Shown here: positions 18,443-33,704 of the stretch, piece by piece
How positions within the stretch are numbered: the first letter of the stretch is position 1
Layout of the letters: each line of letters starts with the position of its first letter
Source: Candidatus Poribacteria bacterium
GTDB lineage: Bacteria > Poribacteria > WGA-4E > PCPOR2b
Assembly: GCA_965116925.1 (NCBI GenBank)
Contig: OZ220744.1
Span: 5,248,001-5,312,000, forward strand
DNA length: 64,000 nucleotides
Direction: 5' to 3'
Made by a program: the position numbers and the translations under genes
The notes under the pieces: model-generated
Databases searched by the model: none
Seen by the model: the letters and a program-made list of their open reading frames with translations, nothing else
Told to the model about the DNA's origin: nothing

Positions 18443-18791
18443 AGCCCAAGTTGCTAGTTATTAAAAATCCATCAGAACCTGTAGGTCGAGATTCACATCT
18501 CGACAAAATACCACATATTACCGATTGCCTGTAACTGCCCGCTTCATCAGTCTTTTTGTAGTTGCCTGATTTATCAGGCGTTTTTTTCTGTATTTGCTCC
18601 TGATTTGTCGGGATTCCAACCTGTCGAGACTATGCGTTAAAGTCATTATTCCTGCTAATATCCTGTAGGTCGAGATTCACATCTCGACACTAAACCGTCG
18701 ATTTTGGAAAATCGACCTACAGAAATGATACAATTTGCACAGACATTGAGGACTATTGGTTTGAATATGCTTGCTACTAGCAACTTGCGTT
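18443..18791. mobile_element. MITE with inverted termini and ATATTT target duplication, containing GTAG hairpins
   Basis: AGCCCAAGTTGCTAGT ... ACTAGCAACTTGCGTT; ATATTT at 18437-18442 and 18792-18797. Confidence 0.65.
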
Positions 18792-22260: not shown

Positions 22261-22376
22261 TAGGAGTTACGCCCTTCAGATTGTAGTTGCCCGATTTATC
22301 GGGCGTTGGTGATAGTTGCCGGCGGCGATTCATCGCTGAACTACAAAGCTTTGAGCGTTCAACTGCGTAAGTCCTT
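22261..22376. mobile_element. MITE, AGGA(G/C)TTACGC...GCGTAAGTCCT family
   Basis: Inverted termini plus internal GTAGTTGCCCGATTTATCGGGC; related copies at 23139 and 33555. Confidence 0.65.
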
Positions 22377-22451: not shown

Positions 22452-22478
22452 TGAACCTTTTTTCCCCCTGCGGTGTCA
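22452..22478 (+). promoter_or_regulatory. putative ECF-type promoter upstream of the sigma gene
   Basis: TGAACC-N16-TGTCA, 19 nt before ATG 22498; fits the general ECF AAC/GTC pattern. Confidence 0.5.
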
Positions 22479-22497
22479 TTTACAGTGAAACCCTTTT

Positions 22498-23112
22498 ATG
22501 ATGGAGCAATCAGACCAAACCCTCATTCGCAAGATCGTGAAGCGCGATGCCACTGCTTTTGAAACACTTTTTGCACGGCACAGTGCGTCTGTCCGTCAAC
22601 ATATCCTTAGCATTGTGCAAGTTGAAAGTGCCGCTGAGGATTTGGTTCAGGAGGTATTTTTGCGTGTCTGGACACGCGCCGAACAGTGGAATGGTCAAGG
22701 CGAGTTCAAGGGTTGGCTTTTCCGCATCGCAACGAATCTTGCCCTCAATCATCTGCGAACCGTGCAGCGACAGCGGCAGGAGCCCCTTGAAACACCGCCG
22801 GACGAATTCGACGACGAGGATGAACGTTCGCCGGATCCGGATTGGCTGGTCGATACCTCGTCGCGTGGTCCCGAAGTGATAGTGGAACAAGCCGAGCGAT
22901 CCCAGCTGCTCTGGCAACTTATTGATGGATTGCCCCAAGAGAAACGAGAAGTGCTCCACCTCATATATCAGAAAGAGATGGCGCTTCGGGAAGTTGCCAT
23001 AGAGCTGGGTATTCCAGAAGGCACCGTGAAGTCGCGTTTACACTACTCCATAAGACATCTCGCCCGTGAATGGAAGGAAATTGCAAGCGGTTGGGAAGAA
23101 GATAAAGAATAA
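22498..23112 (+). CDS. ECF (group 4) RNA polymerase sigma factor
   Basis: Region 2 AEDLVQEVFLRVW / FKGWLFRIATNLALNHLR; region 4 EVAIELGIPEGTVKSRLH. Confidence 0.95.
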   Translation: MMEQSDQTLIRKIVKRDATAFETLFARHSASVRQHILSIVQVESAAEDLVQEVFLRVWTRAEQWNGQGEFKGWLFRIATNLALNHLRTVQRQRQEPLETPPDEFDDEDERSPDPDWLVDTSSRGPEVIVEQAERSQLLWQLIDGLPQEKREVLHLIYQKEMALREVAIELGIPEGTVKSRLHYSIRHLAREWKEIASGWEEDKE

Positions 23113-23138
23113 GCGAGTAGGGACATTCCACACTCTAC

Positions 23139-23260
23139 AGGACTTACGCACTCCAGATTGTAGTTGCCCGATTTATCGGGCGTATCGGGGCAGGGATGCC
23201 CCTCCCACACGTCCTTCAGTCGGGAGGAAGGGCTTTGACCGTTCAGCTGCGTAAGTCTTA
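23139..23260. mobile_element. MITE, AGGACTTACGC family, between sigma and mini-RNAP genes
   Basis: AGGACTTACGCA ... TGCGTAAGTCTT with the same internal palindrome as 22261. Confidence 0.65.
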
Positions 23261-23312
23261 TCTATAATTTACACAAACGGAATATGCAATACGAAGGAAA
23301 TAGGAGGATAGC

Positions 23313-26300
23313 ATGTCACACAACATCACTACATTTTGGCACAAGGAATCCTTTGAGGAATTGATGAAAGAACGGCTGCCAGAGCTTCTTGCTGACCGGG
23401 TGCCGCTCGCCGGTTATCATTTTGATTCAACCGGAGGATACACCTGCCGTGTCAGAATCGTGCTGGCATCAACTGAGGGCTATGTTGAGGTTGAATACAT
23501 GGACATTCCGCAGCCTGATGGAAACGGTATGTTCACTCTCGACGGTGAACCTTATGTTGTCGTGCCGCTCGCTTCAACCGTGGAACTGGAACAAGCGAAA
23601 ATTGAGTGTATGGGTGATCAACTGTACGACTACTTCAAGGCGCGTATCAGGGAAGCACCGCCGGATATAGAATGGGATACGTCGCTTGTCCGCTCATGGC
23701 TTCCGATTGATAGATGGGTGCGTGAATTCTTTAGTGATACATTCACCGCTCAGGAACTGTCCCATACTAACTGGCTCGACAAACATACACATCTACGTCG
23801 GGTACGGATTTCGCAGGGGAATCAGGTGTTTAGCCCCGGACACTTTGGACGGACTTGTCCATTTGAAACGCCAGAGGGACCAAATGTTGGCAAGATTCTG
23901 ACGATTGCGAGGGGTGCGGAGATTCGCGATGGAAAATTGGTCATCATGGATGAAAGTCCTGAAGCAACACTTGGTCTGTCCGCCGCACTGATCCCTTTTC
24001 TCGAACACAATGATCCGCCGCGAATACTCATGGGTGCGAACATGATGCGCCAATGGTTGTCTCCTTCTGCTCCAGAAACCGCACCGATTAGCTGTCCCAA
24101 CGGAGTGTCAAGAGTGGCTGCTTCTCCGGAACCTGCGCTTGTCCAGACAGGGTACGAGCCTGATGCTCCCGACTTTTGGTGTGGGCGTAATCTGTTGACC
24201 GCTTTTATCTCTTGGGGCGGGGATACCTTTGAGGACGGCATCGCGATTAGTGAATCGTGTGCTGCGCGTCTAAATTTTCCTTACGCTATTGAACCGGGCG
24301 ATAAAATTAGTAACCGTCACGGAACGAAAGGGGTCATTTCGCGCATCTTACCTGACGATGAGATGCCCCATCTTGCCGATGGCACACCGGTAGAACTCGT
24401 TTTCAGTTTTGGTGCTTTGCATGGACGGATGAACTTTGGTCAAATCCGAGAAGCCGTCATGGGCCGCATTGCGCGGGCGGAAGGAGAAACCGCTATTGTG
24501 CCGCCATTTCAAGCCCCCAATGCCGATCAACTCCGTGAGCGACTCCAAAAGGTAGGCCTGCCTGAAGATGGGATGGAAACCCTCACGTCTGGACCTAACG
24601 GTAAGAAACTGGATCGACCGAGTACGGTTGGTTGGGTCTATTGGGGAAAGACGGTTCACATCGCGCTGGATAAGCTCAAGGCCTCCGAACCCATCGTTCA
24701 CGAGGCACCTATATACCATCAGGGGCTTGGCGAACTTGAATACTATACACTACGCAACATTTCAGCATTTGAGACATTGCGAGAACATTTCAACACCCGT
24801 GCTTCAACGCGAGTAGATGCGGAGACACTTCCCGATCGCGTTACGGGGGGGACAGTTGAGCAGGCGGGACCACCGACGCCGATGTTTGCCAATCTCAAGG
24901 AGCGACTGTCGGCGGGGGGCATCCACGCTAACTTTGATGGTGACAAACTGACCTTCCAATTTGCGAGTCCAATTGGGAATACACTCCAGCTTGCCCAGCC
25001 GGTTCCCCATCCGTGGCTACATGCTCAAGCTATTGATGAAGTTGGTATATGTGAAGACATTTCTGAGTATCGTGCACTTGCCGATGTCAATGCTAGAGCA
25101 GAGCGAATGTTTGCAAATGATGCGCCGGAAAGCCTAACCCTCCAAACCCTCAAACAACTCCAAACACGTCTTGCAGAATATTTCGACGCACTTCTAAGTC
25201 CCGCAGATATGCGCTTTACGGCACGGACGCTTTTCAGCGGGCGCAGCGTCATCGTACCAGATGCGGAGTTACGTGCTGATCAGGTTGGCATCCCTGAGCA
25301 GATGGCGTGGGCACTTTTCGGGCTGCAGGTTGCAAGAGAGCTTGGTGATACCAAAGAGGTACAGGGAAAAAGCCAGAGGGCGACGCATCTCCTTGATGAA
25401 TTGATGGCGCGTTCATGGGTAATTGTACATCGAGCACCTGCGTTTACGCCTACCTCCTTTGTTGCATTCCATCCAGTGCGGCAGCCAGACCGTGCCATTC
25501 GTGTTCCTCCCTTTGTTTGTGAATTAATGAACGCTGATTTTGATGGCGACCAAGCGGCGATTTTTCTGCCCATCACAGCGGAGGGTCAACGGGAAGCCGG
25601 TGAGCAGCTGTCTATCGCTGGGCATCTCAAACGAGATCCGAATATATGTGCAGCCTTAGCCCCGGGACATGATGCGATATGGGGGTTGGCAAGTTTAAGT
25701 CTCACACCCGAAGGGCGTGATGAACTCTCAGAAATTGTCGGGATGGAGATTGTTATTCCTGAAGGTTTGGTCACGCGGCACTCGTTAGCGGATACGCTGA
25801 AAACACTCCTCAAACGCGAAGGGATTGATCGCACCATTGAAGTCGCTGAACGTCTGATGCAGCGTGGACTCGAAATTGTAAAGGAATCGGGAGCATCTAT
25901 GAGTCCGTTCCTCAGTAGAGGCGATGGTAGTCCGCCCGTTCCTACAGATCCCGATGATGCAGCAGCGTGGAATGCTTACGCGGAAGAACTTATGGAATGG
26001 ATTGCCGCTTACGAAAACTTTGCTGATAACAACTTGGGACCACACATCCTCGCAGTCAAAAGCCGCGCCTTTACAAGCAGACTTTATCGACTCGCGTGTG
26101 TTGTCGGGGCACGAGGGACAGTTTCAGATATTCGAGATTTCGTTTGGACAATCAGGATGGTGGCAAGCCGAGGATTTGCACAAGGGACAGTTTCAGGCAT
26201 TGGAGACGGGGATATCGTGATTCGTAACGGGTATTGCGATGGTTTAACATCTGATGAACTTTATGCGCTCTGTGTCGGATCACGGGAAGGGCTTGTTCGA

Positions 26301-26501
26301 TTCAACTCCGAACTACAACGCGTTGCATGGGAACTACGCGACAGCAGCCAATCAAAAGGATTTACTGTGCTGTCTCGTGCGATGCGAGCCAAGCAGCCCG
26401 GTATCGTTTTCGCACGCGCCGCAGCGTGCGGTGAAGTTGATCCGCTTACAGATATTGACAGCCGGCTTTTCGTCGGGCTGCCCGTCACAACGTCCGAGTG
26501 A
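23313..26501 (+). CDS. miniaturised single-chain RNA polymerase beta-beta' fusion (RpoB/RpoC-derived two-barrel polymerase)
   Basis: In order: GMFTLDG, THLRR, GRTCPFETPEGPNVG, LIPFLEHND...MGANMMRQ, FEDGIAISE, GDKISNRHGTKGVIS, GRMNFGQ, QGLGELE (RpoB), then SGRSVIV, HRAP, NADFDGDQ, GSREGL (RpoC); AGGAGG RBS. Confidence 0.93.
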   Translation: MSHNITTFWHKESFEELMKERLPELLADRVPLAGYHFDSTGGYTCRVRIVLASTEGYVEVEYMDIPQPDGNGMFTLDGEPYVVVPLASTVELEQAKIECMGDQLYDYFKARIREAPPDIEWDTSLVRSWLPIDRWVREFFSDTFTAQELSHTNWLDKHTHLRRVRISQGNQVFSPGHFGRTCPFETPEGPNVGKILTIARGAEIRDGKLVIMDESPEATLGLSAALIPFLEHNDPPRILMGANMMRQWLSPSAPETAPISCPNGVSRVAASPEPALVQTGYEPDAPDFWCGRNLLTAFISWGGDTFEDGIAISESCAARLNFPYAIEPGDKISNRHGTKGVISRILPDDEMPHLADGTPVELVFSFGALHGRMNFGQIREAVMGRIARAEGETAIVPPFQAPNADQLRERLQKVGLPEDGMETLTSGPNGKKLDRPSTVGWVYWGKTVHIALDKLKASEPIVHEAPIYHQGLGELEYYTLRNISAFETLREHFNTRASTRVDAETLPDRVTGGTVEQAGPPTPMFANLKERLSAGGIHANFDGDKLTFQFASPIGNTLQLAQPVPHPWLHAQAIDEVGICEDISEYRALADVNARAERMFANDAPESLTLQTLKQLQTRLAEYFDALLSPADMRFTARTLFSGRSVIVPDAELRADQVGIPEQMAWALFGLQVARELGDTKEVQGKSQRATHLLDELMARSWVIVHRAPAFTPTSFVAFHPVRQPDRAIRVPPFVCELMNADFDGDQAAIFLPITAEGQREAGEQLSIAGHLKRDPNICAALAPGHDAIWGLASLSLTPEGRDELSEIVGMEIVIPEGLVTRHSLADTLKTLLKREGIDRTIEVAERLMQRGLEIVKESGASMSPFLSRGDGSPPVPTDPDDAAAWNAYAEELMEWIAAYENFADNNLGPHILAVKSRAFTSRLYRLACVVGARGTVSDIRDFVWTIRMVASRGFAQGTVSGIGDGDIVIRNGYCDGLTSDELYALCVGSREGLVRFNSELQRVAWELRDSSQSKGFTVLSRAMRAKQPGIVFARAAACGEVDPLTDIDSRLFVGLPVTTSE

Positions 26502-33554: not shown

Positions 33555-33704
33555 TAGGAGTTACGTACTTCAGATCGTAGTTGCCCGATTCATCGGGCAT
33601 CAAGGGACATGTTCAGCTCCACACCTATCGTAGGCGGGGCATCTTGCCCCGCATTGGTGGTGAAGCATCGAATTACAGTATCTCGTCTTGCTGCGTGAGC
33701 CCTA
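33555..33704. mobile_element. MITE, AGGAGTTACG family
   Basis: TAGGAGTTACGT ... GCGTGAGCCCTA; internal GTAGTTGCCCGATTCATCGGGC and GTAGGCGGGGCATCTTGCCCCGC. Confidence 0.6.

Follow-up and report, generated by a model that had tools for sequence, protein, structure and literature searches.

A two-gene unit of an ECF sigma factor and a minimal single-chain RNA polymerase in Poribacteria and distant phyla: a candidate two-protein holoenzyme

The active site of two-barrel RNA polymerases contains eight universal residues, namely three aspartates of a DFDGD loop, one aspartate and two lysines of β, and an arginine and a proline of β′ (PMC2919709). Bacteria use a multi-subunit holoenzyme composed of β, β′, two α subunits, ω and a sigma factor, e.g., one of the extracytoplasmic function (ECF) type, and several fused or reduced forms of the enzyme have been described. 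Helicobacter and Wolbachia produce housekeeping full-length β::β′ fusions of about 2,840-2,890 residues. The yeast cytoplasmic linear plasmids encode a 982-amino-acid Rpb2::Rpb1 fusion, pGKL2 Orf6 (PMC2919709), the Bacillus prophage SPβ specifies YonO, a single-chain, two-barrel and active DNA-dependent RNA polymerase of about 100 kDa (PMC5467207), and the Salmonella phage Arash carries a non-host β/β′-type polymerase with its own sigma factor (Gp206/Gp216/Gp10; PMC10585845). Here, we describe a small sigma factor gene followed by the gene for a one-chain “mini-polymerase”, roughly one third the size of the cell's own RNA polymerase core, in a stretch of 64,000 nucleotides from Candidatus Poribacteria bacterium (assembly GCA_965116925.1, contig OZ220744.1, positions 5,248,001-5,312,000; hereafter “the window”, with positions counted from its first letter). 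The pair is a bacterial-type polymerase plus ECF sigma factor in minimal single-chain form, and it is possibly the smallest known transcription machine that is guided by a sigma factor.

The host is a sponge-symbiont-type bacterium, whose genome is assembled as a single contig of 6.47 Mb. The two-gene unit comprises the following elements:

22452-22477, + strand: ECF-type promoter TGAAC-N15-GGTGTC ahead of the sigma gene; 35 of the 36 upstream regions compared across phyla share the motif
22498-23112, + strand: ECF sigma factor gene, 204 amino acids, with sigma-2 and sigma-4 domains (Pfam, NCBIfam)
23313-26501, + strand: gene for a single-chain minimal β::β′ RNA polymerase, 1062 amino acids (Pfam, NCBIfam and PDB matches, AlphaFold model)

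The original prediction for this DNA had placed an ECF gene co-oriented directly upstream of a mini-polymerase, with a spacer containing a miniature inverted-repeat transposable element (MITE) between the two and no anti-sigma gene nearby. Open reading frames were indeed found at these places, a repeat with inverted ends lies in the 200-nucleotide spacer, and the pair is flanked on both sides by ordinary genes of metabolism and transport that run in the opposite direction, with no anti-sigma Pfam match on the downstream protein or the neighbours. At about 200 amino acids and with sigma-2 and sigma-4 domains only, the sigma factor has the make-up of an ECF (group 4) sigma-70 protein. It matches Pfam Sigma70_r2 (7e-17, residues 24-91), Sigma70_r4 (residues 142-188) and Sigma70_ECF, and scores 114.8 bits against NCBIfam TIGR02937 (cut-off 42.9). 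No NCBIfam equivalog cut-off is reached, the best being PRK12513 with 131 bits versus a cut-off of 206, and among the 38 sigma-like matches of this genome, the closest paralog shows 35-36% identity.

The unit shares with a bacterial ECF holoenzyme its sequence homology, the catalytic residues, the bridge helix, the clamp helices and a promoter of the GAAC/GTC type. It differs in that the core is one chain of 1062 amino acids instead of 1378 plus 1439, that the β flap is deleted, and that α and ω genes are not linked (none was found among the neighbours). Separate, normal rpoB and rpoC genes (1378 and 1439 amino acids) are present in the same genome, and hence, the mini-polymerase is an extra, single-copy gene. 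This sets it apart from the Helicobacter and Wolbachia fusions (PRK09603 / PRK14844), with which it shares the order β-then-β′ in one polypeptide, and its matches fall below the cut-offs of these families (PRK14844, 177 bits versus 4632; PRK09603, 155 bits versus 5372). Compared by architecture alone, pGKL2 Orf6 is similar, as it joins the second-largest to the largest subunit, has lost about half of the two and is near 1000 amino acids long; it differs in being of eukaryotic descent, plasmid-borne and without a sigma partner. YonO, as described, has almost no sequence likeness to β or β′ beyond a few catalytic residues, is phage-borne and has no known sigma factor, whereas the family reported here is plainly derived from bacterial β and β′, chromosomal and linked to a sigma factor. 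YonO also shows no trigger-loop homology, and none was detected in the mini-polymerase either. The phage Arash enzyme, which was detected in virions, consists of two large chains rather than a single chain of 1000 residues. Finally, the gene order is that of ECF sigma/anti-sigma operons, where the sigma gene comes first, its partner lies directly downstream and the promoter is self-regulated; here, the downstream gene encodes a polymerase core and no regulon beyond the operon was found.

A single chain of the mini-polymerase unites the Pfam domains RNA_pol_Rpb2_3, Rpb2_6 (4.5e-41) and Rpb1_2 (2.5e-18), and its PDB sequence matches are bacterial β (1e-45, residues about 129-530) and β′ (1e-18, residues 638-804). 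Modelled by AlphaFold from 66 family members, the protein reaches a predicted local distance difference test (pLDDT) value of 90.7 and a predicted template modelling (pTM) score of 0.89, and residues 1-545 of the model align end to end with β/Rpb2 chains (Z about 30). The protein is cut to about 40% of the combined length of β and β′. Profile comparison with host β gives a probability of 100 (E 1e-47), and residues 326-527 are 36-38% identical to β. About 90 residues stand in for host β 1-493, several internal insertions are gone, and approximately 10 residues bridge the gap left by host β about 880-1125, i.e., the flap between the ED motif and the GDKxxGRHGNKG loop, which has no counterpart. 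Against host β′, hhalign yields a probability of 99.8 (E 1.3e-28). The chain keeps from β′ the strand ...PVPHPW..., the clamp helices, the NADFDGD barrel and the bridge helix; the rudder region is shortened, as is the link to an SGR motif that is switch-2-like. Past the bridge helix, approximately 50 residues follow, and no counterpart of about 617 host β′ residues was detected in this part. A suspected likeness of these last 50 residues to the β′ C-terminus was not supported by BLASTP or hhalign. The functional elements of the chain map as follows:

24297-24332, + strand: β basic loop GDKISNRHGTKG (residues 329-340), aligned to host β GDKMSGRHGNKG; K331 kept in 66/66 and K339 in 64/66 family members
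25062-25193, + strand: β′ clamp-helix hairpin (residues 584-627), aligned to the host β′ clamp-helix segment; helices 584-601 and 606-627 in the model
25530-25550, + strand: catalytic loop NADFDGD (residues 740-746); D742 in 63/66, D744 in 66/66 and D746 in 66/66
26235-26348, + strand: bridge-helix segment (residues about 975-1012); residues 968-1010 align to host β′ 779-822, and the model helix spans 980-1012

The conservation of the active site extends to R707 (64 of 66 members), P709 (62) and the β aspartate D308, which is kept in 58 members and replaced by glutamate in 5 more. With all eight active-site residues conserved in 58-66 of the 66 sequences, the family looks like an enzyme rather than a relic.

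The β′ clamp helices are the main docking site of sigma domain 2. The original prediction had aligned the peptide encoded at 25065-25197 with these helices, and this holds in three respects: the translation reads as quoted, hhalign pairs the segment with the stretch of host β′ that we take to be the clamp helices, and the AlphaFold model forms a hairpin there. Within the hairpin, N593 and P605 are invariant (66/66 each) and R598 is kept in 60/66 members.

The two genes are tightly linked across distant lineages. Among 80 loci fetched from species-representative genomes, 38 are true family members and the rest ordinary rpoBC; the titled loci all stem from metagenome-assembled genomes. All 37 assessable genome loci have a close relative of the sigma factor (E 1e-30 to 1e-121) encoded upstream in the same orientation; the 38th, with only 52 nucleotides of upstream sequence, is not judgeable. 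These loci span Poribacteria, Chloroflexota, Armatimonadota, Planctomycetota, Latescibacterota and Gemmatimonadota, and the mini-polymerases of different phyla are about 50% identical. Sigma and polymerase genes are also neighbours in seven of nine assessable metagenome loci (10 taken), which brings the count to 44 of 46 for all assessable loci together. Mini-polymerase homologs unlinked to this ECF clade had been named beforehand as the finding that would speak against the pairing; what emerged is near-universal linkage in at least six phyla. In the 37 genome loci, the genes overlap by 1-8 nucleotides in 17 cases (often by 4), are separated by 2-26 nucleotides in 7 and by 73-263 nucleotides in 9, and are interrupted by unrelated genes in 4 (a peptidase, two ABC transporters and an unknown protein). 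Clustering of all neighbours revealed no third gene family conserved across lineages. The pairwise distances of the two proteins correlate (r 0.92 overall, 0.48 for deep pairs), as expected for linked genes. In an Armatimonadota chromosome (G003; L029:5965-9006 / L086), the mini-polymerase reads in three overlapping frames, which points to frameshifts or assembly errors.

The module is accessory, being patchily distributed within the phylum and repeatedly lost. Only 22 of 121 sampled genomes of the phylum, belonging to 3 of 19 genera, carry the mini-polymerase; in G098, its gene is broken. Four genomes of the same genus as the host document the decay:

G055: polymerase not found; sigma pseudogene with 2 stops
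G089: polymerase not found; sigma remnant of 87 residues
G095: polymerase remnant of 55 residues; sigma ortholog absent
G106: polymerase not found; sigma not found

This joint decay indicates that the module is dispensable and that the two genes stand or fall together. The flanks remain stable and syntenic among close relatives.

The promoter upstream of the sigma gene is private to the unit. The position 22452, at which the original prediction had started its feature, is the first base of TGAAC-N15-GGTGTC. This element has the properties expected of a self-regulated ECF promoter, its -35 element being GAAC-like, its -10 element GTC-like and their distance approximately 16 nucleotides. Across loci, the motif lies 52-169 nucleotides upstream of sigma codon 5, which served as a fixed reference point, and the 36th region carries GTTGTC. 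With a matrix derived from the other loci only, 22452-22477 reaches 44 bits, and no other place in the 6.47-Mb genome exceeds 22 bits. Neither strict pattern nor matrix scans turned up a second credible promoter site in this genome, where each of the 16 further strict pattern matches falls within a long open reading frame. In five other genomes, the pattern occurs at chance-level counts, apart from copies of an IS3 element: 10 identical pattern copies in G003 fall inside an IS3-type transposase gene, and the element itself is present in at least 10 copies. No second copy of the motif precedes the polymerase gene in the four loci with inserted genes. We infer that the sigma factor reads TGAAC-N15-GGTGTC, and judging from these scans it seems to have one promoter, its own. 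A sole promoter of this kind would make for a feedback loop, the identified output of which is just the two proteins.

Taken together, the active core with its retained sigma dock, the coupled translation and joint loss of the two genes, and their private promoter point to a two-protein holoenzyme as the simplest reading, to which we assign a probability of about one half. One operon would thus encode a self-contained two-part transcription enzyme, made of a single-chain catalytic core and a dedicated ECF sigma factor. The core would be a fusion of bacterial β and β′, in which both catalytic barrels, the bridge helix, the SGR motif and the clamp helices are kept. Sigma domain 2 would dock on the retained clamp helices and the sigma factor would direct initiation at TGAAC-N15-GGTGTC, an element that would drive the operon itself and thereby close a positive feedback loop. 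A stronger version of this proposal, to which we give somewhat less than even odds, pictures a minimal sigma-dependent machine of about 118 kDa plus 23 kDa (estimated from the lengths) that would need no α, ω, flap, lobes or trigger loop. Its sigma factor would sit on the clamp helices, and the two proteins would run an orthogonal, self-amplifying loop at their private promoter, independent of the host polymerase and its inhibitors.

Complex prediction with the sigma factor and polymerase residues 267-1062 gave a score of 0.36 (runs 0.36, 0.38 and 0.34), and the best of three controls scored 0.00. The partners reach a pLDDT of 64 or more, and the runs have 25% or more of their contacts in common. 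The mark for a positive prediction, which the pair passed, is reached by 116 of 157 solved complexes and by 2 of 215 mismatched pairs; at scores of 0.60 or under, it was reached by 18 of the 157 solved complexes and by both of the passing mismatches. The prediction thus lends weak support to the modelled pairing.

Several observations weigh against a two-protein holoenzyme, and this weakness of the complex prediction is one of them. Since sigma-core complexes have already been solved, the pass may reflect likeness rather than binding. In established holoenzyme structures the flap tip holds sigma domain 4, and with the flap deleted, recognition of the -35 element by the mini-core would need a new dock. 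Given the canonical architecture and spacing of the ECF promoter, host core plus sigma factor could use it even if no mini-core took part. Conservation of the clamp helices is no more than average for the protein (majority fraction 0.62 versus 0.66); moreover, NusG/Spt5 binds the clamp helices in all cellular polymerases, and their retention is therefore not sigma-specific. A trigger loop, which presumably belongs in the β′ region after the bridge helix, was not detected, the 673 host residues from the bridge helix on being aligned only at the bridge helix itself, although a very short or diverged equivalent could escape alignment. Two metagenome loci lack an adjacent sigma gene. In L196, the polymerase is N-terminally truncated and the sigma factor is absent. 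In L202, a low-GC contig, the promoter (827-851) follows a tRNA-synthetase-like gene and directly precedes the polymerase gene, no sigma gene intervening, and hence, the sigma factor must be encoded elsewhere. No longer protein containing this sigma factor was found at E <= 1e-20, and the lack of a sigma-polymerase fusion counts as weak evidence. Lastly, with no second promoter or regulon found, the output of the system is unexplained.

Some of these points also fit a sigma factor that works with the host core only, as a self-activating switch with this operon as its single target. The mini-polymerase would then act without a sigma factor, as YonO may do, and once switched on it might work on single-stranded or nicked DNA or on RNA, or serve as a back-up enzyme. 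We rate this main rival as less likely than the holoenzyme, but it accounts for the ordinary -35 and -10 elements and spacing of the promoter, for a domain 4 flap that is missing from the mini-core and present in host β, and for the L202 promoter that drives the polymerase gene alone; it explains linkage and joint loss equally well, and clamp helices also serve NusG-type factors. YonO itself provides the precedent: it is an active polymerase made of one chain with two barrels, and no initiation factor is known for it (PMC5467207). What a host-core switch accounts for less readily is that the clamp helices, including the invariant N593 and P605, survived the loss of over half of β and β′, and that the stop/start overlap in 17 of 37 loci fits the production of two proteins in fixed proportion. 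A self-activating sigma factor with one target and no anti-sigma would also be an odd way to regulate a single enzyme, and the complex prediction was weakly passed rather than failed.

The original prediction had left the choice between a dedicated holoenzyme and a decoy, in which the mini-core occupies the usual position of the anti-sigma gene and, as a core-mimic anti-sigma, sequesters the sigma factor via the clamp helices. Linkage, joint loss and clamp homology argue for the pairing as such. The holoenzyme half of the proposal is weakly supported by the complex prediction (0.36 versus 0.00), and the decoy half fares worse and appears highly improbable. The gene order resembles that of sigma/anti-sigma operons, an anti-sigma gene is absent, and retained clamp helices as well as the weakly passed prediction would suit a decoy; a sigma sink would, however, not need catalytic residues, and those of the mini-polymerase (the three aspartates of NADFDGD, both β lysines and the β′ arginine and proline) have each been kept in 62-66 of the 66 members, which come from several phyla. 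Besides, the whole fold of 1000 residues is strongly constrained at approximately 50% identity between phyla, where a hairpin of 40 residues would suffice, and no sigma target beyond the operon was detected that could be held back. Neither a HxxxCxxC zinc-binding motif nor an anti-sigma domain gave a Pfam match on the 1062-amino-acid protein, which makes membership in an anti-sigma family less likely and leaves the likelihood of sequestration as it was. An accessory conflict or defence module, i.e., a polymerase insulated from inhibitors of the host enzyme, induced through its feedback loop by attack or stress and acting on foreign or damaged nucleic acid, is improbable as well. The patchy occurrence in 22/121 genomes and 3/19 genera, repeated loss or decay within one genus, the scatter over distant phyla at about 50% identity and the failure to find chromosomal targets are in line with such a role, but there is no PADLOC defence model match, mobile-element or defence genes are not conserved neighbours, the family was not found in viral contigs or plasmids, and the flanks are stable and syntenic in close relatives.

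A working holoenzyme of this size would show how small a part of the bacterial enzyme (approximately 400 kDa) suffices for a sigma factor to direct initiation at a specific promoter. It would provide a compact model for structural and single-molecule work, a ready-made orthogonal set of sigma factor, core and promoter for synthetic biology, and, in bacteria, an equivalent of phage YonO and of the Rpb2::Rpb1 fusion from yeast plasmids. If the sigma factor is only a switch, several large phyla with few cultured members would still hold a conserved cellular single-chain polymerase without a known template, the function of which would need explaining. Whichever reading holds, a promoter found once per genome offers a clean entry point for experiments.

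Literature searches retrieved no description of a sigma/mini-polymerase pair; a survey by Iyer and Aravind (2012, J Struct Biol), which reportedly covers unusual bacterial polymerase homologs, lay outside the searchable set. The ECF reclassification by Casas-Pastor et al. (PMC7826278) makes no mention of Rpb1/Rpb2 neighbours in its main text and one supplement. Source annotations name the mini-polymerase protein hypothetical, and ESM Atlas clusters of the same architecture are labelled “hypothetical protein” (135 members) or “DNA-directed RNA polymerase family protein” (73 members). Other ESM Atlas clusters, with no recorded taxa, join Rpb2_6 and Rpb1_2 in single proteins of 1221-1787 amino acids, indicating that further fused polymerase forms of other sizes exist.

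A plasmid origin was considered and rejected, as the plasmid matches are ordinary rpoB/rpoC and no record has a match covering at least 80% of the query; so was a viral origin, the best matches to the mini-polymerase in viral contigs (IMG/VR) being 21-30% identical. PHROG matches are confined to full-length β-like and β′-like families. In PADLOC, the polymerase has 0 matches and the sigma factor a marginal one (E 9e-4) in the helix-turn-helix region. Reduced polymerases that are 21-26% identical to the mini-polymerase are encoded on many viral contigs; two such contigs (L115:3308-9164 and L137:3188-9118, IMG/VR) have adjacent separate genes for a β-like protein of about 890-900 and a β′-like protein of about 1010 amino acids.

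In three metatranscriptome runs from two studies, parts of both genes are covered by short contigs (150-490 nucleotides, 90-99% alike) at a low depth of 2-9. These contigs give neither starts nor strand and the libraries may hold DNA, so that expression is neither shown nor excluded. High depth in these data is confined to repeat copies, with contigs from the RNA libraries stacking on copies of the MITE-like repeat at depth 200-700. This small dispersed repeat, which has inverted ends, lies on either side of the sigma gene, and a ribosome-binding site follows the spacer copy:

22263-22375, strand not assigned: MITE-like repeat, copy upstream of the promoter; core 22283-22308 matches the spacer copy; ends read from the sequence, approximate
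about 23139-23261, strand not assigned: MITE-like repeat, spacer copy; core 23160-23185; inverted ends read from the sequence
23302-23307, + strand: Shine-Dalgarno sequence AGGAGG of the polymerase gene, read from the sequence

The repeat consists of a hairpin core (GCCCGATTTATCGGGC) with inverted ends. Its 26-nucleotide core has 92 copies in the genome at <=4 mismatches (54 on the + strand, 38 on the - strand), 4 of which are in the window (18558-18583, 22283-22308, 23160-23185 and 33577-33602). The spacer is lineage-specific, since 24 of 37 other loci have overlapping genes or a gap of <=26 nucleotides.

Compared with close relatives of 1039 amino acids, the mini-polymerase of the window contains an insertion of 23 residues (26133-26207, residues about 941-965), which resembles a partly duplicated copy of the ...GARGTVSDI... 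segment next to it and which some relatives of 1061 amino acids appear to share. Residues 942-965 are the only long low-confidence stretch of the model. Elsewhere in the host genome, outside the window (C1:5635513-5668685 and 1221337-1228022), sigma-like domains cluster at the beginning of long open frames of 460-930 amino acids, which suggests families of ECF sigma factors fused to large C-terminal extensions.

A GGAGG-like sequence precedes the start of the polymerase gene in most loci. The conserved C-terminus of the sigma factor, Trp-Glu-Glu/Asp, is encoded by TGGGAGGA in the window (23092-23112) and in related loci, and where the genes overlap, these codons also form the Shine-Dalgarno sequence of the polymerase gene. 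Accordingly, an RNA signal may constrain the C-terminal protein motif of the sigma factor.

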